From assembly GCA_964597545.1 (NCBI GenBank), contig CAZQXN010000010.1:140-64139 (forward strand): DNA of 64,000 nucleotides. Reading direction: 5' to 3'. Below are positions 1 through 45,652 of the stretch, one piece after another (the first letter of the stretch is position 1; each line of letters begins with the position of its first letter). The DNA comes from an uncultured Planctomycetia bacterium. Its GTDB lineage: Bacteria > Omnitrophota > Gorgyraeia > 1-14-0-20-64-10. The notes beneath the pieces were generated by a model that had not been told where the DNA came from, did no database searches, and saw only the letters and a list, made by a program, of their open reading frames with translations. Made by a program: the position numbers and the translations under genes.

Positions 1-847
1 CGAGGGGGGGATCCGGCAGCCTCTCGACTGGTGTGACGTTGCCGGTATCATCAATCAGAAAGATTTGGACAACATGCTGCCTCCGCTGACCTGCTGAGTC
101 GCGCATGTTCGCTGCGCGGTAGTTCATCTTGGGGTTGAGGTAGTCTTTGAGAAAAAGGTCAAAACCAACGGGGTCTTCAAAGACAACAACAGCGCGCTGG
201 ACTGTTGGGTTGCCGCGGAGATCCTTCCCCCGGAAAGGAGAGCGCTCCACGGTCTTGACGGTCACGCGCCCATCGGGTTGAACCCTGAACATGGCAGGGT
301 GTTCGGGGTAGCGGGTTGGATCCGGGTTCTCTTTATACGGCTCAAGGTAGAACTTGCCGGGAACAGAGAAGGTTCGCCCGGTTTCTGAATCATGGACAGT
401 CACCTTGATCTGAATGAAGGGGGAAGCCACCAACGGTTTGCCCCTGAGCGTCTCAGGAATCTTCAGATGAAGGGTCATCTCAAGCGGCTTAAAGTCTGTT
501 GCGGGATCTGGGATGGTTGCGGTCACCGCCGGATTGGGGTCAACCTCGACGGGGGGCTGGTAGAGCGCAGTCAGAACCCCTAAACCGCCTACGCCAAAGA
601 GGACAGCGGCGATTGCCCATCTTTTGAGGCGCAACCGACGGGTTGTCTTCTCCTCTTCTAAGCCGGCTTGGATCCGTTCGGCCACAACAGATTGACCGGC
701 TTGCACTCTGCGCAGAGTCTCTCCTGAATAGGAGTAGGGTCGAAACCCATCCTGAGCAGAGTCAATGGAAGTCCCGGCAAACTGTGACATGGCTAAACTC
801 GTGCTTAGCCAAAGGACTAAGATTCTAGTTACAGCTTTTCCACTCAT
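1..847 (-). CDS. 5' portion of a large secreted protein, paralog of the N-terminal ~280 aa of the 1406-aa protein at 41351..45571; gene continues beyond window start
   Basis: Manual minus-strand translation from ATG at 847 gives MSGKAVTRILVLWLSTSLAMSQFAG...PFIQIKVTVHDSETGRTFSVPGKFYLEPYKENPDP...HPAMFRVQPDGRVTVKTVERSPFRGKDLRGNPTVQRAVVV...QIFLIDDTGNVTPVERLPDPP with no stop through position 1. It is collinear with and clearly similar to the N-terminus of the 41351..45571 protein. The plus-strand ORFs 392..583 and 45149..45340 are antisense shadows of this similarity. Confidence 0.6.
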   Translation of the reverse strand, partial: MSGKAVTRILVLWLSTSLAMSQFAGTSIDSAQDGFRPYSYSGETLRRVQAGQSVVAERIQAGLEEEKTTRRLRLKRWAIAAVLFGVGGLGVLTALYQPPVEVDPNPAVTATIPDPATDFKPLEMTLHLKIPETLRGKPLVASPFIQIKVTVHDSETGRTFSVPGKFYLEPYKENPDPTRYPEHPAMFRVQPDGRVTVKTVERSPFRGKDLRGNPTVQRAVVVFEDPVGFDLFLKDYLNPKMNYRAANMRDSAGQRRQHVVQIFLIDDTGNVTPVERLPDPPL

Positions 848-924
848 AAGATATGCCTGTAGATACTATAAGTTTACCTGAGCAATGGGAGTTATGGCAA
901 GGTGTTAGCTAGATATTATTACGC

Positions 925-1653
925 TTAATGATTGGTGGCGCGCGTAAAATAGCCACCAGTGAAGGCGTCAAGGTGGGCGGTGAGCGCCTCAATGCGCAGA
1001 CGTCTTTCCTGGCGAAGGTGCGGATCATCGGTAGGGGCAGCCCGAAACCGCTCCAAAAGCTCCTTGCGTTCAAAATAGATCCGGGTGACCTCCTCTAAGA
1101 TCTGGTTTCTAAGCTTTACCATAAGCCGTGAGCGAACATCGATAGAGGTTTGATCGGTTGACCAGAGCAGATCCCCCAAATCCCAGGTGAAATCAAAGTC
1201 CACCGAGAAATTGCGCCGCTTGGGCCCAATCGTAAATTGGGTCACCCCCTTATAGGTCGAGGAGGCAATGTTGGCACTCTGGTCCCGGTCGAGGCTGAGC
1301 GTAAACTTAGGCAAAAAAGCCTTCCACCGAGCTTGAGCTCGCCACCGAGAGATCTTCTGAGGTGAAACCTCTGCATGGCGAATGGCAGCCTGCTGGACCT
1401 GCCCCACAGTCGGCTCGGCACTACCTTCCCAAGGCAGCTTCAATCCAACAGGGTGACGTGGAGCAATAGGCACGGCAGGTGCCGGCGCCGGCGCACCAGG
1501 CACCGGAATGGCCCTTCCGGTAGCCGGAAGTATCGAAGCATGCACCTTGTGGTTGCCGCGCATGGGGATCAAAATAATCCAGGCAACAACCAGTATGAGG
1601 GGAAGCAGTAGGATTGTAATTTTTACGCGCTCTATTCTCATCGGGGACCCCAA
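925..1653 (-). CDS. hypothetical membrane-anchored protein (N-terminal TM helix, Pro/Ala-rich linker)
   Basis: ORF with hydrophobic N-terminus ITILLLPLILVVAWIILIP followed by PAPAPAVPIAP linker; no recognisable catalytic motif. Confidence 0.45.
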   Translation of the reverse strand: MGSPMRIERVKITILLLPLILVVAWIILIPMRGNHKVHASILPATGRAIPVPGAPAPAPAVPIAPRHPVGLKLPWEGSAEPTVGQVQQAAIRHAEVSPQKISRWRAQARWKAFLPKFTLSLDRDQSANIASSTYKGVTQFTIGPKRRNFSVDFDFTWDLGDLLWSTDQTSIDVRSRLMVKLRNQILEEVTRIYFERKELLERFRAAPTDDPHLRQERRLRIEALTAHLDAFTGGYFTRATNH

Positions 1654-37305: not shown

Positions 37306-37968
37306 TTAATCCAGGCGGTATTTGACCAGGAAATCGTAGGAGGTCTTGCCCTGCTTCATCAACTTCGAAAAAGCAGGGTAAGGGGCGGCCGAGCGCATAC
37401 CGGCCAGTGCGGCTTTTCGCAGACGGGGATCAGAGGCCTTAATCACCTTGGCTGAGCGTAACTTCCCCTTGGGATCCAACACCACCTGCAGCCGGACTGT
37501 CCCCTGCACCCAGAAGGCTGGATAGCGCAAGTGGGCCCTGAGGTGCTCTCGAACCTGCTCCTTGTGCTCAAAAGCAGCAAGTTCTCCCTCTGGCAAGAAC
37601 CCTCCTGAGGCTGGGGCATGGCCCGCTGTAGGAGGCAATACCGGCTCTTCGGAGACTTCGGCCTTGCGCTTCTTTGAAGCGGCAACCTGTCTCTTCTCTC
37701 TGGGGGGCTTAACAACTGGCTTGGGGGCTGCAGCTTGCTTGGGTACAGCTGGTTTTTGAGAAACGGCGGTGCCTCGACCCTGCTTGGGAGGAGCAGGCTT
37801 TACCCTGCCAGGGGAGAAATTGGCTTGAAGGCTGTTTCCGGCGGGAATGTAGGAAATCTCAATGGCTTGGAGTGTTCCCCGCTGCGGGACCATTCCCTCG
37901 GGAGGGCGAAAAGAGAGAAATCCCAAATGAATGATCAGCGAACAGAAAGCTGCGGCCTTGAGATTCAC
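37306..37968 (-). CDS. TonB family protein
   Basis: N-terminal TM, Pro/Lys-rich spacer PAPPKQGRG...PKQAAAPKPVVKPP, C-terminal TonB-C-like domain. Confidence 0.65.
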   Translation of the reverse strand: MNLKAAAFCSLIIHLGFLSFRPPEGMVPQRGTLQAIEISYIPAGNSLQANFSPGRVKPAPPKQGRGTAVSQKPAVPKQAAAPKPVVKPPREKRQVAASKKRKAEVSEEPVLPPTAGHAPASGGFLPEGELAAFEHKEQVREHLRAHLRYPAFWVQGTVRLQVVLDPKGKLRSAKVIKASDPRLRKAALAGMRSAAPYPAFSKLMKQGKTSYDFLVKYRLD

Positions 37969-37969
37969 C

Positions 37970-38569
37970 CTAAGACTCCGGAGATTGAAAAAGGACGCGC
38001 ACGGTAAAAGCCGCCGTAGGCTTGGACCAAGTGCTCGGCAGCGGTGGAAAGGGTGCTGCAGCCTTGAGGCCTCGACTCGCCACCTCTCTAAGTTGTTGAG
38101 GCATCCCTGCCGAATCAGCTACAGCGCGCGCTTGCTGCAAGTGCCCCTGTCGATCCACAATGAAATGAAGTAGCACCGCACCCTCAACACCACTGAGCGG
38201 GAATCGAATCTCTCGCCCAATCTTAGAACGAAGCTGCTCCAGATAAGGCTGGAGGGCCACTGGATGCTCTCCGGGACGGGGCGAAGGGGTCTCAAGCGCT
38301 CGGGTCTCTTTGACCCTTGTCGTAAGCGGCTCATCGGAATTGAGCCTGCGGGGCACAGCAGTGGGTTTGGGCTGAGCAAGTTGGAGTGCGGGACCAGTTG
38401 TCCCGATGTAGATAAACTCCGCCTCAACCGCTTGAGGGGGATGCGGCTTCAACTGCTCCAACCAACCCCAGCCGGTCGCTGCCCAGGCAGCGCCGGCATG
38501 GAGCAGACAGGAGAGTAGAAGCGCTACTCGGAAGCTGTGACCGTTACGGTCGAACGTCGGGCGAGCCAT
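37970..38569 (-). CDS. TonB-like periplasmic protein (second copy)
   Basis: Signal/anchor LLLSCLLHAGAAWA, C-terminal region resembling TonB C-terminal domain. Confidence 0.5.
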   Translation of the reverse strand: MARPTFDRNGHSFRVALLLSCLLHAGAAWAATGWGWLEQLKPHPPQAVEAEFIYIGTTGPALQLAQPKPTAVPRRLNSDEPLTTRVKETRALETPSPRPGEHPVALQPYLEQLRSKIGREIRFPLSGVEGAVLLHFIVDRQGHLQQARAVADSAGMPQQLREVASRGLKAAAPFPPLPSTWSKPTAAFTVRVLFQSPES

Positions 38570-39042
38570 CGGAGAAATAGCTCAAAGCACCCAAAAAGCA
38601 AAAAGGTATAGGCCAGATCACCAACCAACCCAAAGCGATAGAAGGGAATCCCCGCTACGAAACAGGCGGTGAGCCCCTCAAGGGTCGGTGGATACCACCC
38701 CAGCGCCCAAACGCCGAAGTTGGAGATCAGGAAAAAGAGGGTGGAGCCCGCCAGGGAACCGGCAGCCAACCGCAGGGGGGTGCGGCGCTCACGCAGGAAA
38801 CGGCCGATCAGACCGCTCAAGGCTACCGCCACCCAACCAAACAGATGCACGGCCTTAAGCCCCAGGAAGAGATCCCCTGCCCCAATGGCCAATACCGGAA
38901 CAATCAGGGCCCAGCGCTTGGGCAACACTGCCCCGCAGAAAAGCCCCATTCCGATGATCGGAGCAACATTGGGCGGGTGCGGCAGAAAGCGCGCCACCGC
39001 TGCCACAACAACAAAAAGAATAGCCAGAGAACGCTGCGTCAT
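38524..39042 (-). CDS. small polytopic membrane protein (DUF6580-like, typically adjacent to TonB-dependent B12 receptors)
   Basis: ILFVVVAAVARFLPHPPNVAPIIGMGLFCGA N-terminus and 4-5 TM helices. Confidence 0.5.
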   Translation of the reverse strand: MTQRSLAILFVVVAAVARFLPHPPNVAPIIGMGLFCGAVLPKRWALIVPVLAIGAGDLFLGLKAVHLFGWVAVALSGLIGRFLRERRTPLRLAAGSLAGSTLFFLISNFGVWALGWYPPTLEGLTACFVAGIPFYRFGLVGDLAYTFLLFGCFELFLRWLARRSTVTVTASE

Positions 39043-39119: not shown

Positions 39120-41084
39120 TTACAAATCCCAGCCTACACCGGCCACCCAGGTCCTGGGAGGTGCGGGGTTCTCACCGGTAGAAACCGTGCTTCCATTGGA
39201 GGAGGCAAAGGTCTGGTACTCCTCATCCAAGAGATTGAGTACCTTGAAATAGACCTTCGTTTTGGGAAACTGGTACTCAACGGTACCGTTGACCACCCCG
39301 TACTTGTCAGCCAGCATCTTGTTGTTAAAATCGTTGATCCGAAACTGCTTACCCACCCACAGCGCATCCAGGTCCACAGTGAGTTTCTCGGTCACCGGCA
39401 GGCGCAACCCCCCTGTGATCCGCGCCTTTGGGGTAATGGGCAAAGTGTTGCCGGTATAGGCGCCCTTATGAAACCTGGCCCGGGTCCAACTGAAGGTGAG
39501 GTAGTAGGAGAGAGCTTTAAGTTTTTCCAGAATTCCGCTTACATTGAATTCCAGCCCCGCCCGTGTTGTGGTGTAGTTGGCATTGGCCCAAGTGGTGGCA
39601 TCATAAAGAATCTCATCCTTGGTATGCACCACGAACCCGGCTACCTTGACCTTGGCCCAGGGGGCAGCCTTCCAGCGCACCCCGCCTTCGTAGTGATCTG
39701 CCTGCTGAGGCTTGAGGGTAACCGCATCGTTGTAGGGCGGCAGCGGTGCATCCAGGTCATCAATGTTGGGCGCCTTAAAGGCCCGGGCCGCGCTCCCATA
39801 CAGATTCAAGCGGTCACTGAGCTTGTAGTTGATGCCAAGCTTGGGGCTTCTCCCGGAAAAGCGCAAAACCCCGGAGAAGGCCGGCCAGGTCAGATCCTCA
39901 TCATACCGGCTCTTGTCGTACCGGAAACCCAGCGTTACCGTGAGCCTCTCCAGCAATTCAATCGCCTCCTCCACAAAGAGCCCATAGATCCATCGGTTCG
40001 ACTCGGATTTGGTGGCGGTTCGGTTCCCGGTCACTGCTTTGTCCTTGGCCCAATCCACGCCAAAGATGGTCGTCGCACCCCAGCCCTCTGCCGAAAACTC
40101 ATGACTGGCACGTAACCCTGCGCCGAAGGTAGAGGTGATCGTCCCAAACCGGGCGGGCGTGACTGAGTCTACCTCCCGCTTGTGGAGAAAGAGGTTGCTG
40201 ACCACTGTCCAGGAATCGTTGAGCCGGCGAGTCAGGCTCAGGGAAGCCGAGCGCTGCCAATCATCAAAGAGGCCAGGGAATGATCCAGCCCCCTTGCGGT
40301 TCTGTTCAACAGTCGCTGTGGTAAGCCCACCCGAATAACCGCTGGTATCTTCGTGGTTGGTCAGATGAAGGTCGATCTGCGTCTCTGGGGTGGGACTCCA
40401 GCCGGCAAAGAGATTTGCGGTGGTACCCCGAGATTTTATGCGATCCCGGTAGCCGCCCCCCTCCATCCGGGTCACCCCTAAGCTGTAGGAGACCTCACTC
40501 AAACGACCCTGCATCAGTGCGGTAGACCGGTGATGAAGATAGCTGCCAATCTCTGAGGAGCCCTCAAACTCGAGGGGTTTCTCCCCCCCCTGCTTTGTGA
40601 CGATGTTGATCACACCGCTCAAGGCCCCTTCCCCGTAAATGGTCCCGCCGCCGCCTCGGAGAATCTCAATGCGCTCGACCTGCTCCATGGGAATGGCCAG
40701 CCAGTGAACCTCGTCCCCGGTGATCCGGTTCTGGCGCACACCGTTGACCAAAACCAAGGCGCCGGTCCGGGAGCTGTTGACAAACCCGCGTAAGTTGAGC
40801 CCCGAATCGGCCCCAAGCCCAAACCCACGCGAGTCAATAAGGCTGACCCCCTCGTACTGTGCCAGCAAATCCGGAAGGTTCGCAGCCCCTGAGGCGGTAA
40901 TCTCCTCTTCAGAAACAACGGTGACATTGCCTGGGAAGGCCGATTCTTGGATCTGAAGACCCGGGATGCGCCGTGGGGTAATGAGGAGATCGCCTAAGGA
41001 GACTGCCTCTTCGGCAGCTGAAACTACCGGTGGGAAAAACGTGAGCGCGGCCCCGATGATCAGGGCCTTAAAACAAAAATTCAT
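39120..41084 (-). CDS. btuB: TonB-dependent outer membrane receptor (BtuB-like, preceded by cobalamin riboswitch)
   Basis: Signal peptide, plug domain with NLRGF..ALVLVNGVRQN...ERIEILRGGGGTIYG, long beta-barrel. Confidence 0.85.
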   Translation of the reverse strand: MNFCFKALIIGAALTFFPPVVSAAEEAVSLGDLLITPRRIPGLQIQESAFPGNVTVVSEEEITASGAANLPDLLAQYEGVSLIDSRGFGLGADSGLNLRGFVNSSRTGALVLVNGVRQNRITGDEVHWLAIPMEQVERIEILRGGGGTIYGEGALSGVINIVTKQGGEKPLEFEGSSEIGSYLHHRSTALMQGRLSEVSYSLGVTRMEGGGYRDRIKSRGTTANLFAGWSPTPETQIDLHLTNHEDTSGYSGGLTTATVEQNRKGAGSFPGLFDDWQRSASLSLTRRLNDSWTVVSNLFLHKREVDSVTPARFGTITSTFGAGLRASHEFSAEGWGATTIFGVDWAKDKAVTGNRTATKSESNRWIYGLFVEEAIELLERLTVTLGFRYDKSRYDEDLTWPAFSGVLRFSGRSPKLGINYKLSDRLNLYGSAARAFKAPNIDDLDAPLPPYNDAVTLKPQQADHYEGGVRWKAAPWAKVKVAGFVVHTKDEILYDATTWANANYTTTRAGLEFNVSGILEKLKALSYYLTFSWTRARFHKGAYTGNTLPITPKARITGGLRLPVTEKLTVDLDALWVGKQFRINDFNNKMLADKYGVVNGTVEYQFPKTKVYFKVLNLLDEEYQTFASSNGSTVSTGENPAPPRTWVAGVGWDL

Positions 41085-41350: not shown

Positions 41351-44300
41351 TTACGCGTAAACCGCGTGAATGAGCTGACCCTGCTCATCCTCGACGGTAA
41401 CAAAGCGAAGATTCAATAGTTGCCTAACGGTGAGATTCTTATTGATATTCAAAACCACCCAGGCCAAAGGATGCAAAGCCTCCATCTCTTGAATCGAAAA
41501 AGCCTGCATCCGAACCCCATCGACAGAGCCTGCCGGCGCAACCAGCATCCAATCGTAAGCTCCCAGGCCCGGCGGACGAATGAGGCTGGGGCGGTTACTA
41601 AGCAGATCCCGCAAATCCTCCTTGTGAACAACAAAGTCCATTCCTTTCGCCGGACGCTGGCGAAGGTGCCTGTAGATCGCCCGCCCAGCGGCCAATCTTA
41701 AGCTTGGGTCGGCAAACAGGGTAAAGCGCCCGGGAATCACTGGAGTCACCTCCCCTGCCGCTTGGATCTCAACCCGCTGCTGTTCGGTCAGTTGGCCGCC
41801 GTACTGCTCAAGGAAGGGATCGGCCTGAATCGTCTGATCCCTTCCAAAAACCCGGTCCTGCCACCACGGCTGCTGCGCCACGGCGGCCGCCATACCGCCA
41901 ACAGTTGCTGCATGCAGGACTTGCCGACGGGTCATCTCTGCAGAAGCCACCATACCACCACCGGTGGCTCCCTGTGGGTTGGACTGCCGAATCATCTCTT
42001 GAGCGGCTGCTATAGCGCCGCTCGTGACTGCCTGTAAGGTTGACTGCCGAATCATCTCTGCAGCGGCTGCCCGCATTGCCCTTTCATCCCCCTCCTCCAA
42101 GCCGGAGGAAAGGATGTCGTTGTCAGAAATAAGGGAGCAGTCTTCTGCTGTAGTAATCTGGAACATCTGTTCGTCTCCCAAATCAAATTGAATGGAGCTT
42201 AAGCCTCTCTCGTCATCGGCAATCAAGCTGGCGCTGGCAATACCACCCGCATCATCCACAGCATTGAAGAACTCGCGAATGGCCTTGGCACTCTTAGCCG
42301 GGTCTGCACCAAAGCCGGGACCGAGCAACAGCGTTGCTTTGCGATCCGGCTTTAATTCGAAAAACCTTCCATGCCGCACATCCACAAACAGCCCCCCCTC
42401 GGCGATGTCGTATGCCAATAGGCGGTAGTCGGCAGGAGCTCCCGGAAGTCCAGGGCGATCTACAACTGATGGTAACACCTGCTCCGGTCTCCCTGCTCCA
42501 ACCCAATCCACCGCTTCAATGGCGCCTGCGCCATCCACATGAATCAGGAATGGGATTTCATTTGTCTGCGTAACGTGGTCTGCCAAACGTCGGTGAAACT
42601 CGGTAAAGCCGTCCGACTCCTGCACGGAGGGCAAGACAGGAATCAAGGCAATGCGCTGGCTTTTCTTGTCAAGGGCAACAGGGCCCTCGCGAACCAGCTG
42701 GCCACCGATCTCCAGCTCAACAGGATGGTTGGCGTCAGTCCATCCCAGAGAGACAGAAAAAGTTACGGTGCGCGGCTCAGAGCGCAAGTCCCGATCCAGG
42801 ATGGTTAGGATCACGGCCTGTTCCTGAACGGCCTGGAGCGACAGGGGTGTGTCCTGAGCGCTACGCAAAAGATCAATCACGATTCGCTCGGGAAACAGAA
42901 GCACAACTTGCCCAATCTTAATCGGGACCGAGATTCCCCCCGTGCTTATCGACCCAGTTCGCTGTTGTTCCAAAGAGGCAAGTCGATCCTGCAGAAAACC
43001 AGCCAGCCTGTCAGGACCCCCGTCTCGCAGCTTTGACTCGAGGAAATCTTTTTTCGCAATGACGGTTCGAGCCAACGAATCCCTTACATACAGCGTTGGG
43101 CCACCCAGCGTCCCATGCCCTTGCCTAAGAAAGCCTTTGCCCTCCAAAACAGCATCGAGTCCCACCTCATGCTCGCCAACCTCCAATGTCACAATAGCTG
43201 CCTGAAACGGAAGCGTAAGCCGGACTTCCTCCAAGCCGGAGGTGGGTTGTTTAACTTGCCTGATCTCAACGCGCTTGGGAGCTTCTGCCCACTGATCAGG
43301 ACGCTTCATCGGGAAGAACAACTCACCATCGGGGTCTTCAGGGGGGGCCAAAATCACCATACTGTATCGGCCTGAAATAAAGATGTTGTCCCCATAAACC
43401 CGCTGCATCGCCAGATCAAGCTCACCCCCACGCTCTTCGTCGATATCGGCTCCATCCAACACCTCAGCAGGACTTTTTGCTGTCGCGTTCTCATACAGAT
43501 AGATTTTCATGCTCGAGGGATGGTTTTCTAGGATATCCTTTCTCACGTCGGAATATGGATTCCGCGACAAATTTACCATCTCATTTGTCAGCTCCTCATC
43601 GCCTTCCTCCAAGCCGGTGGAGTGAGGTGTCCGAGAAACCGATCGGAAATGCGGCTGGGGAACAACAGAGTTTCGGAACTGACGATTTAAGGATGGGAGG
43701 ATGGTTTCTGTGAGCACTCTATCCTCGAAAGCGTCATGATGCCCTCTGCTTCTGGGTAACGCCTCTCTTGGCTCAAAAAGGAATAGCCTGTCGTCATTAA
43801 ATCTCGCCTGGAGGATCCGCTCATGTCGCCCGACATTGGGAGCGTAGACACCAATCAAAACATCTTCAGATATGCCAACCTGCATAGCATCGATGAGCGT
43901 TACGCCTTGGGGTGCTTCGGCACCACTATGGAAATCAAGATCCAACAGGATAATGGCATCGTAGGGCCCGGTTTTCTTCCATGCACTCGCAAAAGCCGGG
44001 CCGGTGTTCGTAACGTAATCCACACGGATGCCTGAACGACCGTGATCGCGAAGCCACTCAGACGTCATCTCTTCGTACACTTGCCCATCACGGGTAGTGC
44101 AGGCAACGATCAAAACCCGCCGCAGCCCCTCCTCCTGGCCGGCGGCAGAGCCTGTTGTGAGGAAACTGAAGGTGCGCCGGGCAATATCCGATTGCAAATC
44201 AGGCGATAGAATAGAATCAAACGAGGTCAGCTTAGAACCGAGCATGTCGGTAGCTTGAGCCTTAGCATTGACAAGGTCTGTAATGTTACGCGTTGTAGCT

Positions 44301-45571
44301 TGTGGTTGCATGTTTGCGTGGATGACTCCGCCGCCTTGCGCAACAGATTGTGCTATCAGCGTTGAGGCTGCCATCAAGTAAAGTGCGCGTCCTGCCTGGG
44401 TTTGACCTCGGCCCAAGATCTCCGGAATCGCTTGTAAGATGCGGTCGGCAGCTCCGGAGTCGATCTTGTAAAAGATGTCGGGCAATTGTCCGGCACGCCG
44501 CATCTCATCAAAACGACCAAGAATATCCTCAAGAGATATATCCATTTCGAACGTCCCTGCACCCATGAGATCCTCCATGGCACGGATAACTGCCACTGAA
44601 ACCACAGCCATGTCCCTTGGATGGACAGCTCCGGGCCAGTCTTTCCAGACAGTCGGCTGCTCTTCCTGCCCAGCAGCAGGGGGACCCCCTGATTCATTTT
44701 CCCCCACATCCTCCTTGGGGAGAAACCGCTGTCGCAGCCTGAGGAATTGATCCACGGCAATGGGTGGCTCTGGCAATCGTTCTGCCGGCGTTACCCTCCC
44801 GTAATCATCAATCAAAAAGACCTGGATAACATGTTCCCTCTCCTGGCCCATTTCATTCTGTCTATTCGCCGCACGGTAACTCACCCCAGGATCCAGATAT
44901 TCGCTTAAGAACTGCTTAAATCCAGCAGGGTTTCTCATGACAACGACGGCTCGTTGGACAACTGGATTTCCGCGAGCATCCTTCCCTTGGAAGGGCGAGC
45001 GCTTCACTGTCGTAACGGTCACGTACCCATCGGGATGAACCCTAAACATGGCGGGATGATCAGCATGCACATCAGGGTCAGGATTCTCTTCGAACGGCTC
45101 GATGTACCACCTGGAGGGAATGGCAAAATCCCGCCCGGTTTTTGAATCATGAACAGCCACCTTGATCTGAATGAAAGGGACCGCCACCAGAGCTTCCCCT
45201 CGGAGTTCCTCGGGGATGTTCAACTGAAGGGTCATATGCAGTGGCGCAAAGTTGGTCTTGGGATTGGGAATATGCGCAGTCAGCGTTGGATCGTCATCTG
45301 CTTGCGGGAGTGGTTGGCGCAGCAGCATTCGTCCGCCTAATGCTGCCAAACCGACTCCGGCAACAGCAATTGCCCACCTTACCAGGAATGATCGACGGGG
45401 TCGTACCTCTTCTAAACCAGAAGAGAGTGCATCGGCAACCAAACCTTGGTCAGCTTGGATGCGGCGCAGGGCAAAGGTGGGGCTCGGCCAAGCCAAGCAA
45501 AGGCTTAACAAAATGGCCAGGGATCTGGCGATAACATTATGCTTCTTTACAGGGCTGAATGGTGTCATCAC
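41351..45571 (-). CDS. giant (1406 aa) signal-anchored secreted protein of unknown function with internal tandem repeats
   Basis: Single long ORF; N-terminal signal/anchor AILLSLCLAWPSPTFA and second hydrophobic segment; recurring SGLEEGDE motif; three ~20-aa tandem repeats AAEMIRQS...; N-terminal ~280 aa paralogous to partial gene at 1..847. Confidence 0.7.
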   Translation of the reverse strand: MMTPFSPVKKHNVIARSLAILLSLCLAWPSPTFALRRIQADQGLVADALSSGLEEVRPRRSFLVRWAIAVAGVGLAALGGRMLLRQPLPQADDDPTLTAHIPNPKTNFAPLHMTLQLNIPEELRGEALVAVPFIQIKVAVHDSKTGRDFAIPSRWYIEPFEENPDPDVHADHPAMFRVHPDGYVTVTTVKRSPFQGKDARGNPVVQRAVVVMRNPAGFKQFLSEYLDPGVSYRAANRQNEMGQEREHVIQVFLIDDYGRVTPAERLPEPPIAVDQFLRLRQRFLPKEDVGENESGGPPAAGQEEQPTVWKDWPGAVHPRDMAVVSVAVIRAMEDLMGAGTFEMDISLEDILGRFDEMRRAGQLPDIFYKIDSGAADRILQAIPEILGRGQTQAGRALYLMAASTLIAQSVAQGGGVIHANMQPQATTRNITDLVNAKAQATDMLGSKLTSFDSILSPDLQSDIARRTFSFLTTGSAAGQEEGLRRVLIVACTTRDGQVYEEMTSEWLRDHGRSGIRVDYVTNTGPAFASAWKKTGPYDAIILLDLDFHSGAEAPQGVTLIDAMQVGISEDVLIGVYAPNVGRHERILQARFNDDRLFLFEPREALPRSRGHHDAFEDRVLTETILPSLNRQFRNSVVPQPHFRSVSRTPHSTGLEEGDEELTNEMVNLSRNPYSDVRKDILENHPSSMKIYLYENATAKSPAEVLDGADIDEERGGELDLAMQRVYGDNIFISGRYSMVILAPPEDPDGELFFPMKRPDQWAEAPKRVEIRQVKQPTSGLEEVRLTLPFQAAIVTLEVGEHEVGLDAVLEGKGFLRQGHGTLGGPTLYVRDSLARTVIAKKDFLESKLRDGGPDRLAGFLQDRLASLEQQRTGSISTGGISVPIKIGQVVLLFPERIVIDLLRSAQDTPLSLQAVQEQAVILTILDRDLRSEPRTVTFSVSLGWTDANHPVELEIGGQLVREGPVALDKKSQRIALIPVLPSVQESDGFTEFHRRLADHVTQTNEIPFLIHVDGAGAIEAVDWVGAGRPEQVLPSVVDRPGLPGAPADYRLLAYDIAEGGLFVDVRHGRFFELKPDRKATLLLGPGFGADPAKSAKAIREFFNAVDDAGGIASASLIADDERGLSSIQFDLGDEQMFQITTAEDCSLISDNDILSSGLEEGDERAMRAAAAEMIRQSTLQAVTSGAIAAAQEMIRQSNPQGATGGGMVASAEMTRRQVLHAATVGGMAAAVAQQPWWQDRVFGRDQTIQADPFLEQYGGQLTEQQRVEIQAAGEVTPVIPGRFTLFADPSLRLAAGRAIYRHLRQRPAKGMDFVVHKEDLRDLLSNRPSLIRPPGLGAYDWMLVAPAGSVDGVRMQAFSIQEMEALHPLAWVVLNINKNLTVRQLLNLRFVTVEDEQGQLIHAVYA

Positions 45572-45652
45572 GGGTAAGGTACAGTTACTACAAGCTTACA
45601 CTCTGAGAGGCCATTTTTCAAGTCAAATAGCTAAAACTGTATTACTACTTAC

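Follow-up and report, generated by a model that had tools for sequence, protein, structure and literature searches.

What does an unbroken minus-strand reading frame of 1406 codons encode when its product matches no recognisable protein domain, and how is such a gene put together? The frame lies in a window of 64,000 nucleotides, the whole stretch of DNA that we analysed, and its integrity agrees with a preliminary description, which had taken the gene to be intact (Table 1). The GTG at the head of the frame is followed by ATG 45568 as codon 2. We consider ATG 45568 the likely start, because an orthologue on a metagenomic contig (L013) has GCG in place of the GTG and keeps both the ATG and the leader that follows. 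The NCBI call P0001 (1325 aa, from M82) is probably too short. The promoter was read from the sequence, and a consensus scanner raised no flag there; its layout of TTGxxx, a spacer of 17 or 18 nt and TAwaCT is found upstream of all seven family genes introduced below. No Shine-Dalgarno sequence precedes the start, and GC3 is 0.56 versus 0.65-0.75 in the neighbouring genes, indicating low codon adaptation. Comparison with the orthologue reveals purifying selection in two shared modules, M4 and M5 (dN/dS about 0.36), and we thus regard the giant as a real coding gene.

Table 1. Features of the giant gene and its paralogue, in window positions; residue numbers refer to the protein encoded by the respective gene
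Feature	Position	Strand	Residues	Remarks
Giant ORF	41351..45571	-		1406 codons from GTG 45571; stop TAA 41351-41353
Sigma-70-like promoter	45593..45621	-		TTGAAA, 17 nt, TAAGCT; ATG ~25 nt downstream
Family leader, Sec-type signal-like	45467..45571	-	1-35	KK, hydrophobic core, PTFA/LRR
Junction motif 1, SGLEE	45407..45421	-	51-55	
Hydrophobic helix after twin arginines, RRSFLVRWAIAVAGVGLAALGG	45332..45397	-	59-80	Kyte-Doolittle 1.75
N-domain	44756..45316	-	~86-272	common to paralogue, P0003, P0004 (HMMER, alignment)
Junction motif 2, AGQEE	44660..44674	-	300-304	
Module M2	44144..44659	-	305-476	homologous to P0006/P0009 aa 1584-1790
Junction motif 3, AGQEE	44129..44143	-	477-481	
Module M3	43619..44128	-	482-651	homologous to P0005 aa 202-400
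Junction motif 4, TGLEE	43604..43618	-	652-656	homology with L013 orthologue begins here
Module M4	43241..43603	-	657-777	common to giant and orthologue
Junction motif 5, SGLEE	43226..43240	-	778-782	kept in orthologue as PSGLEEV
Module M5	42107..43225	-	783-1155	common to giant and orthologue
Junction motif 6, SGLEE	42092..42106	-	1156-1160	homology with orthologue stops here
Module M6, allele-specific	41354..42091	-	1161-1406	
Paralogue N-terminus	1..847	-		leader, AGLEE, RR-helix, N-domain; 3' side cut by window/contig end
Paralogue promoter	871..900	-		TTGCCA, 18 nt, TAAACT

We searched the giant against Pfam, NCBIfam, PHROGs, PADLOC and PDB sequences and recovered neither a catalytic domain, as described previously, nor a domain of any other kind. 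Searched exhaustively with HMMER, 1.84 billion representatives yielded five relatives, each matching on a different module. The supposed restriction of the family to one species does not hold, as relatives, though extremely rare, are present in three or more further sources of sequence (two groundwater ENA assemblies, a Logan run and several JGI metagenomes). The giant belongs to a previously undescribed and very rare protein family, the GxEE-junction modular proteins. Its members start with a conserved leader of putative Sec type ending in AxA/LR, followed by a chain of domain-sized modules of ~90-430 aa. The modules are shuffled among members, with the N-domain located at aa 1047-1217 in P0004, and some of them open with twin arginines and a hydrophobic segment.

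The motif that gives the family its name had been noted as a recurring SGLEEGDE. The recurrence is indeed beyond chance, but SGLEEGDE is merely the longest variant of [AST]-G-[LMQVIA]-E-E. The giant contains six copies of [STA]G[LQ]EE, against 0.014 expected (0 of 20,000 shuffles reach six), and the paralogue N-terminus contains one. The wider pattern is found 36 times in seven family genes, with 6-12 copies per protein, and at each locus the family gene is the sole ORF with two or more copies. P/S/A-rich linkers between modules end in the motif; upstream residues are enriched in proline (1.95x) and serine (1.75x), the residues following EE vary, and in the structural model of the giant the motifs map to coil stretches of low pLDDT. 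At the DNA level, the core CCGGCTTGGAGGA is present in three of the giant's copies; the motif core spans 13-14 nt, and its codons differ among lineages. GGAGG is encoded in 27 of the 36 copies versus 16.5 expected from synonymous resampling (2/5000 reach 27), an excess that is overstated because orthologous copies are not independent. Together with a G-ending codon before EE in 31/36 copies and an in-frame ATG after a few junctions (P0005 GLEEGM, P0009 GQEEGAGM), this could mean that a ribosome-binding site is translated as GxEE and that internal starts on the giant mRNA yield the modules separately as well. We regard this as highly improbable: ATG, GTG or TTG follows in frame within four codons of EE in 7/36 copies versus a background of 23%, the first copy in both the giant and its paralogue reads TTA GAA GAG and thus has no GGAGG, and GGAGG is common within other genes of the window.

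We analysed the modules between the junctions individually. The N-domain, a beta-rich fold with pLDDT 67-93, is the sole part modelled confidently by AF2. Foldseek and PDB profile searches gave no significant match for it, and clusters of Cys or His are absent. M2 is predicted to be helical with low AF2 confidence, and pLDDT falls to 31 in the C-terminal half of the giant. M3 shows an alternating beta/alpha pattern resembling flavodoxins or receivers, a generic fold at low pLDDT. An assignment of M3 as a response-regulator receiver (PF00072) was rejected, as Pfam gives no match at E <= 1; in place of the acidic pair on beta1, the giant has AC and P0005 has GG. A B12-binding domain was suggested by Foldseek matches and by an adjoining cobalamin riboswitch. 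It was likewise rejected, as the D-F-H-S-G spacing in the giant differs from DxHxxG and P0005 has no histidine there; the matches have TM-scores of 0.15-0.34 and were obtained with a low-confidence model. The core of M5 reads YRLLAYD..GGLFVDVRHGRFFE. In M6, three AEM(I/T)R(Q/R)-type units in tandem precede a C-terminal domain; the module has no homologue in P0002 or P0007. The last of these units weakly matches the Tat signal (aa 1212-1232, window positions 41876-41938).

We next compared alleles for one orthologous pair, the giant locus and contig L013. Over 10 kb of flanking DNA, beginning 6 nt before the stop codon, identity is 92.6%, and the flanking TBDR, DUF6580 and TonB_C proteins share 94-98% identity (89% for the p199 neighbour). 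The genes themselves align between L013 aa 53-556 and giant aa 652-1160, corresponding to M4-M5, with 45% identity over 513 aa. The orthologue has no RR-helix, N-domain, M2 or M3, so that about 600 aa have been lost or gained; its last 600 aa are unrelated sequence, the C-terminal module(s) having been replaced. The two homology breakpoints (L013 aa 54/giant aa 653 and L013 aa 553/giant aa 1157) coincide with copies of the junction motif. Divergence in the shared modules greatly exceeds that in the flanks: dS and dN are 1.25 and 0.46 for M4-M5 and 0.64 and 0.22 for the leader, versus 0.19-0.27 and 0.01-0.03 for the flanks. What had been described as a single giant protein is instead a string of exchangeable modules, and the set found at this locus differs in a genome that is otherwise near-identical.

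A variable region bounded by a short conserved motif, at which homology starts and stops as it does at VENN (PMC3150448), together with ancient alleles, is reminiscent of polymorphic toxins or effectors, in which variable modules are exchanged in the manner of CdiA-CT or Rhs tips. We consider such a function a faint prospect here, as there is no immunity-type ORF, with 45 nt separating the stop codon from the cobalamin riboswitch, the flank is conserved between alleles with different C-termini, and no secretion-system partner genes are found nearby. The giant also has no TPS, FHA, DUF638 (VENN) or Rhs/YD architecture in Pfam, NCBIfam and PADLOC, and no known toxin domain in Pfam and PADLOC. 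The preliminary description had named adhesin, S-layer and predation/cell-contact roles as candidates, and a predation role stays a candidate here. Size, leader and hypervariability would fit a classical adhesin or S-layer protein, and the N-domain shows non-significant PDB profile matches to three S-layer chains (E = 0.14-1.1) and low-probability matches to Ig/arrestin-like beta-sandwiches. Such a protein appears improbable, given that SLH, Big, cadherin, FHA, autotransporter and known S-layer or adhesin domains are absent from Pfam and NCBIfam searches, that the giant has no internal tandem domain repeats, and that the orthologue does without half of the modules. An abundant S-layer protein in particular is disfavoured because there is no S-layer domain, and because low codon adaptation and the missing Shine-Dalgarno sequence argue against very high expression.

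A second, partial copy of the gene lies at the start of the window. Its reported collinearity with the giant N-terminus was confirmed by BLASTP, in which giant aa 34-271 align with paralogue aa 44-282 (59% identity over 239 aa, one gap, E = 8e-95). A nucleotide identity of ~70% over 468 nt and a dS of ~1.65 indicate that the duplication is old, as previously proposed. The paralogue promoter and first ~24 codons share 71% DNA identity with the region upstream of P0009. The block between the copies is mostly minus-strand and housekeeping in content, including SecY, AccC, aminotransferases and a UvrD-type helicase. The bracketing of this block by the two copies, also remarked upon earlier, has no detectable meaning. 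Synteny of the orthologue is limited to the downstream BtuB-type operon.

We then asked where in the cell the module chain may reside. A hydrophobicity scan located the previously noted signal/anchor and second hydrophobic segment at aa 13-31 and 62-80. By eye, the leader follows a Sec signal pattern (KK(H)..R, hydrophobic core, P-T-F-A/L-R), and the same n-h-c arrangement is seen in L013, P0004 and P0009. The leader of the giant shares 70% identity with that of L013 and, over 66 aa, 39% identity with that of P0004. Judging from this pattern, the leader is predicted to be cleaved after AxA. The segment at aa 59-80, which is kept in the paralogue and in P0003, may represent a membrane anchor or a Tat-like segment. 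A Tat signal peptide (PF10518/TIGR01409) was rejected for the giant: Pfam reports no TAT_signal match at all for aa 59-80, and aa 1212-1232 stay below the curated cut-offs, at 14.5 bits against 22.7 and 11.9 bits against 16.7. An N-terminal Tat signal was rejected as well, as the RR segments begin at aa 59 and aa 1214 and the conserved Sec-type leader precedes the first of them. If both hydrophobic segments spanned the membrane, they would conflict with the positive-inside rule, because RPRR is located on the N-side of the helix, ~30 aa past the Sec-type leader. With one hydrophobic segment ahead, the second helix would run from outside to inside, and the ~1300-aa module chain would face the cytoplasm as a membrane-anchored scaffold, the two segments forming a hairpin or the leader being cleaved to leave a short outside tail. 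The receiver/flavodoxin-like pattern of M3 would suit this topology, as such domains are mostly cytoplasmic, and in P0009 TM segments lie mid-protein between large modules. We find a cytoplasmic scaffold unlikely, since RPRR favours an N-in orientation of helix 2, P0005 contains an esterase-type alpha/beta hydrolase module, and hypervariability is more typical of exposed proteins. Moreover, L013 and P0005 have a cleavable-looking leader and no second helix, and export of the whole chain is therefore predicted. Hypervariability and a Sec-type leader together favour an envelope or exposed location for the giant.

Tat signals normally work only at the N-terminus of a protein. Two internal stretches of P0004 nevertheless exceed the Pfam TAT_signal cut-off (34.6 versus 22.7 bits), and RR or RK with a hydrophobic stretch follows within 12 aa at 8/36 junctions. 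Several modules start like free-standing proteins (GLEE-G-M-SRVLLVGG, GLEE-GL-NRRQFLG), and the motif is found at every module boundary, past a flexible linker. These features would be expected of a bacterial polyprotein cut at or near each GxEE, some products of which use their own RR-type signal or anchor. We find a polyprotein unlikely, as no protease module and no conserved adjoining protease is present, the contexts differing at every locus, the residues after EE are variable, and the modules have no stand-alone homologues among the 1.84e9 representatives. A related and similarly unlikely view holds that the junction combines a site of whole-unit exchange between alleles with a processing or synthesis-pausing site. 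Here, a single ORF under a common Sec leader would join domain-sized units, some of them with export or anchor signals of their own, and [AST]-G-x-E-E, in most cases with GGAGG at the core of its coding sequence, would mark the joints. If true, such a gene chain would be a new way to organise bacterial genes.

The explanation that we favour, at roughly even odds, is that the giant is a hypervariable, exported and module-swapping envelope protein with GxEE junctions. It would be exported by Sec, tethered to the inner membrane by the RR-preceded helix, and its changing complement of modules would be displayed on the surface or within the envelope. Polymorphism at the locus may be maintained by diversifying or frequency-dependent selection, with phage, predators or competitors as possible agents and with whole modules being imported by recombination. 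In the protein, the junction motif may close a flexible linker and could, in addition, be a site of processing or docking. In the DNA, its core may act as a joint for module recombination, like the VENN-encoding sequence in cdiA; this role is drawn by analogy, because 13-14 nt is little for RecA-dependent exchange and the codons of the core differ among lineages.

We compared the giant to known systems with related features. Mycoplasma Vlp/Vsp proteins combine a conserved promoter and signal peptide with variable mature parts. The GxEE family similarly keeps its promoter region and leader among alleles and paralogues, and its mature part is a mosaic. Unlike Vlp/Vsp, the giant has no conserved lipobox (Cys25 is Ser in the orthologue), its modules are large globular domains rather than short tandem repeats, and no invertible or slipped-strand switch is seen. 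In dual Sec-Tat membrane proteins, the RR motif comes after an even number of TMDs and is directly followed by a single one (PMC5449189). Like the actinobacterial Rieske protein Sco2149 and others, the giant has a Sec-type segment upstream of an RR pair that directly precedes a moderately hydrophobic helix, positive charges after this helix (R81, R85), and weak, sub-threshold matches to Pfam TAT_signal and the Rieske TAT signal. It differs in that a single, cleavable-looking segment (aa 13-31, hydrophobicity scan) precedes RR59-60, in that the helix is followed not by a cofactor-binding domain but by the N-domain, unmatched in Pfam, NCBIfam and PDB, and in that relatives carry up to three RR segments per chain. 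In CdiA, a short VENN peptide and its coding sequence mark abrupt divergence and delimit module exchange (PMC3150448). The GxEE family, like CdiA and other polymorphic toxins (VENN in DUF638/PF04829), diverges abruptly at a short conserved motif, and the giant's alleles long predate the genome that flanks them. CdiA is unrelated in sequence and domains, GxEE differs from VENN, and the locus has neither an immunity gene nor a CdiB/TPS partner. VENN occurs once before the C-terminal tip, whereas GxEE is found at every module boundary, and the giant's family gains and loses modules in the N-terminal half as well.

The reading frame of the giant protein is unbroken over 1406 codons counted from GTG 45571, as expected for the large ORF of the preliminary description. 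ATG 45568 is codon 2 of this frame. In the positional orthologue on metagenomic contig L013 the GTG is replaced by GCG, but the ATG and the subsequent leader are kept, and 45568 is thus the likely start. The NCBI annotation of the same gene (P0001, contig of 64,140 bp) has 1325 aa and starts at Met82, omitting the leader, which is conserved and under selection, the first junction motif and an arginine-pair helix (RR-helix, aa 59-80). This start is probably too far downstream, since the stretch preceding Met82 is kept in both the paralogue and the orthologue and is thus coding. The paralogue at the window start shares 59% identity with giant aa 34-271, with one gap (E = 8e-95), and signal-like segments upstream of this match also align, in line with the related N terminus noticed earlier. 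The two copies have ~70% nucleotide identity and a dS of ~1.65; the duplication is therefore old, as had been proposed, and not recent.

Features of the window discussed in the text
Feature	Position	Strand	Remarks
Paralogue, N-terminal part	847..2	-	truncated by window start
242-aa ORF	925..1653	-	no Pfam or NCBIfam match
UvrD/PcrA-type helicase, 1026 aa	11154..14234	-	C-terminal Cas4-like (PD-(D/E)xK) nuclease domain; AddA/RecB-like fusion
TonB_C protein	37306..37968	-	downstream of riboswitch
199-aa protein	37970..38569	-	no Pfam or NCBIfam match
DUF6580 protein	38524..39042	-	downstream of riboswitch
TonB-dependent receptor	39120..41084	-	downstream of riboswitch
Cobalamin riboswitch RF00174	41112..41306	-	81 bits; begins 45 nt after giant stop
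Giant gene	41351..45571	-	1406 codons
CCTCC/GGAGG hairpin	42090..42110	-	within giant ORF
CCTCC/GGAGG hairpin	43224..43243	-	within giant ORF
Part missing from P0001 model	45329..45571	-	leader, first junction motif, RR-helix

Neither the giant nor the paralogue could be assigned to a family using Pfam, NCBIfam, PHROGs or PADLOC, and PDB sequence and profile searches gave nothing significant. The sole profile match in the giant is a sub-threshold TAT signal at aa 1212-1232, and the earlier statement that it lacks a recognisable catalytic domain thus holds. No internal domain repeats were found in the giant, a literature search for 'SGLEE' returned nothing relevant, and a profile of the N-domain (aa ~86-272) had no matches in GTDB genomes, JGI metagenomes or viral contigs. 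A word-indexed homology search with the full-length protein recovered its own database copy only, although negatives from this index cannot be read as absence. An exhaustive HMMER search of 1.84 billion cluster representatives, with aa 83-1282 as the query, yielded only five relatives, every one of which hits another part of the giant: P0002 matches aa 889-1165, P0005 aa 469-664 and P0006 aa 295-485, and P0003 and P0004 match the N-domain, which in P0004 is located at aa 1047-1217 of 1444. P0007 and P0009 are longer forms added by cluster look-up. Taken together, the Pfam, NCBIfam, PHROGs, PADLOC and PDB searches, with Pfam extended to all relatives, gave weak TAT-signal matches, an alpha/beta-hydrolase module in P0005 and nothing else. 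As the relatives are few, come from separate sources (JGI metagenomes, two ENA groundwater assemblies and one Logan run) and each cover a different part, the family is real, rare and modular. These comparisons establish, at the sequence level, a new and rare family described in no database, with modules shuffled among its members and with a conserved leader and junction motif as its marks.

We compared the leaders after correcting the 5' ends of the relatives. By sequence pattern, every member opens with a Sec-type leader, in which basic residues and a hydrophobic core are followed by small residues and then L-R (leader ends include PTFA/LRR, PVFA/LRE, PAFA/LRQ and SAWG/LRP). A scaffold facing the cytoplasm is one of the main rival explanations. 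A lipoprotein reading was ruled out, Cys25 not being conserved. All seven genes carry a sigma-70-like promoter (TTGxxx, 17/18 nt, TAwaCT) ~25 nt upstream of the ATG, and none has a Shine-Dalgarno sequence before that ATG.

The recurring SGLEE-type motif of the preliminary description is real: the giant has six copies of [STA]G[LQ]EE (aa 52, 301, 478, 653, 779 and 1157), where 0.014 would be expected, and the paralogue has one. In the broader form [AST]-G-[LMQVIA]-E-E it punctuates all members, with 36 copies across the seven genes, and among the ORFs of every fetched locus only the family member has two or more. The modules in between are domain-sized, mostly 90-430 aa. Pro and Ser are enriched 1.95-fold and 1.75-fold in the eight residues preceding the motif, and in 8 of the 36 junctions RR or RK plus a hydrophobic stretch follows within 12 residues. 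Internal RR segments in P0004 exceed the Pfam TAT_signal cut-off (34.6 bits), whereas the giant's own copies fall below it. An AF2 model of aa 83-660, calculated with N-domain relatives in the alignment, has a confident beta-rich N-domain (pLDDT 67-93), followed at low confidence by a helical module M2 and an alternating beta/alpha module M3; aa 653-1406 gave no usable model (pLDDT 31). In this model the motif is found in low-confidence coil stretches that directly precede the opening strand or helix of the following module. A B12-binding module, suggested by fold hits and the adjoining cobalamin riboswitch, was ruled out for lack of a conserved DxHxxG ligand motif.

We investigated whether peptide or DNA is conserved at the junctions. 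The exact word CCGGCTTGGAGGA is common to three giant copies, and the first motif copy reads TTA GAA GAG in both giant and paralogue. Across the family the Glu and Leu codons differ, and the peptide is therefore conserved as such. GGAGG occurs in 27 of 36 copies as compared with 16.5 expected by synonymous resampling (2 of 5000 resamples reach 27), a moderate excess that is overstated because orthologous copies are not independent. Internal initiation of translation at the motif, also among the main rivals, is not supported, since in-frame start codons follow it in only 7 of 36 cases, no enrichment over the 23% background. At two positions the junction word and the preceding Ser codons can form a small hairpin, CCTCCGGCTTGGAGG, in which an anti-Shine-Dalgarno-like sequence is paired with a Shine-Dalgarno-like one.

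The L013 gene allowed us to compare two alleles at one position. Its contig is identical in L014 and L015, and L006 is a fragment. Synteny was compared on the downstream side, where the cobalamin riboswitch, a 654-aa TonB-dependent receptor, DUF6580, the 199-aa protein, TonB_C, S21 and an M16 peptidase all match the window; the shared proteins are 89-98% identical, and the flanking DNA is 92.6% identical over 10 kb, starting 6 nt before the giant stop codon. The gene at the giant's position encodes 1163 aa. Its leader shares 70% identity with that of the giant and its aa 53-556 share 45% with giant aa 652-1160, but the RR-helix, N-domain, M2 and M3 are missing and its last 600 aa are not related to the last 246 aa of the giant. 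Both breakpoints coincide with the motif (VGQEE-54 with giant TGLEE-653, AGMEE-553 with giant SGLEE-1157). For this one orthologous pair, the aligned sequences establish a hypervariable locus with breakpoints at the motif. The flanking genes have dS values of 0.19-0.27 and dN values of 0.01-0.03, compared with a dS of 1.25 and a dN of 0.46 (dN/dS ~0.36) for the shared modules M4-M5; the leader lies in between. The alleles are therefore much older than the split of the genomes carrying them. Import or long maintenance of alleles explains this better than a mere acceleration of point mutation, and the protein is still constrained. The giant is thus a genuine gene under selection. Its GC3 is 0.56, compared with 0.65-0.75 in adjoining housekeeping genes. 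A second locus in a related population, on contig L012, encodes P0009 (1921 aa, 12 junctions). It shares 71% DNA identity with the window paralogue across the promoter and first codons, with wholly different modules. The preliminary observation holds and its interpretation is borne out in part; beyond a large orphan, there is a module-swapping hypervariable locus that defines an undescribed family with its own junction motif.

L013, L014 and L015, from three JGI samples, share their first base, which lies ~100 nt ahead of the family-gene promoter. Their initial ~118 nt have no match in the window, and this common start marks either an assembly break or a rearrangement where the locus begins on its 5' side. 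The window's upstream neighbours are Sm_multidrug_ex and PCMT. Synteny scans with PCMT and the TonB-dependent receptor returned only distant loci or loci lacking upstream DNA, the PCMT relatives being at most 53% identical and spread over several phyla. The conserved right flank is a BtuB-type B12 uptake operon consisting of the riboswitch and four genes. Its 199-aa ORF recurs with 89% identity in the corresponding operon of the related genome, likewise under riboswitch control, and is thus probably a real, uncharacterised component of the uptake system. The riboswitch variable region in that genome (L013:3860-3910, L006; alignment A9, columns 212-260) contains an insertion of ~25 nt, made up of GGTACC(A/C)GGTACC palindromes, that is missing in the window. 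Upstream of P0009 (L012:9540-9690) there are comparable tandem units of ~70 nt, also rich in GGTACC, together with a tRNA-like sequence, and the element is probably a small REP/MITE-like repeat.

We propose that the giant protein is exported via Sec, that the RR-helix may tether the exported chain, and that the modules it displays in the envelope would vary, with phage, predators or competitors exerting the selection that upholds this diversity. Each junction would be a linker end and its coding sequence a recombination joint. The junction may also be a processing site; a processed polyprotein is another main rival. A classical S-layer protein or adhesin is a further main rival, for which the family searches returned no match. 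If our reading is right, an uncultured diderm bacterium whose chromosome is conserved elsewhere has a hot spot of allelic diversity here, the encoded proteins form a family that databases do not describe, and one short motif, present at every module boundary and the site of whole-module exchange, provides a simple, searchable metagenome signature for such proteins. It would open to test how interchangeable parts are put together into large variable envelope proteins, and whether twin-arginine segments inside long exported chains act as anchors, as Tat signals after processing, or have no role.

The closest documented parallel to the junction is found in CdiA toxins, where homology between modules starts and stops exactly at VENN-encoding sequences (PMC3150448). 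A polymorphic toxin is one more main rival; unlike CdiA, however, the giant locus has no TPS, FHA or DUF638 domains, immunity gene or partner genes. The RR-helix resembles dual Sec-Tat membrane proteins, in which the RR motif comes after an even number of helices and is followed by a cofactor domain (PMC5449189), but the giant has neither. It is unlikely that the locus reflects a truly new organisation in the form of a punctuated gene chain or polyprotein.
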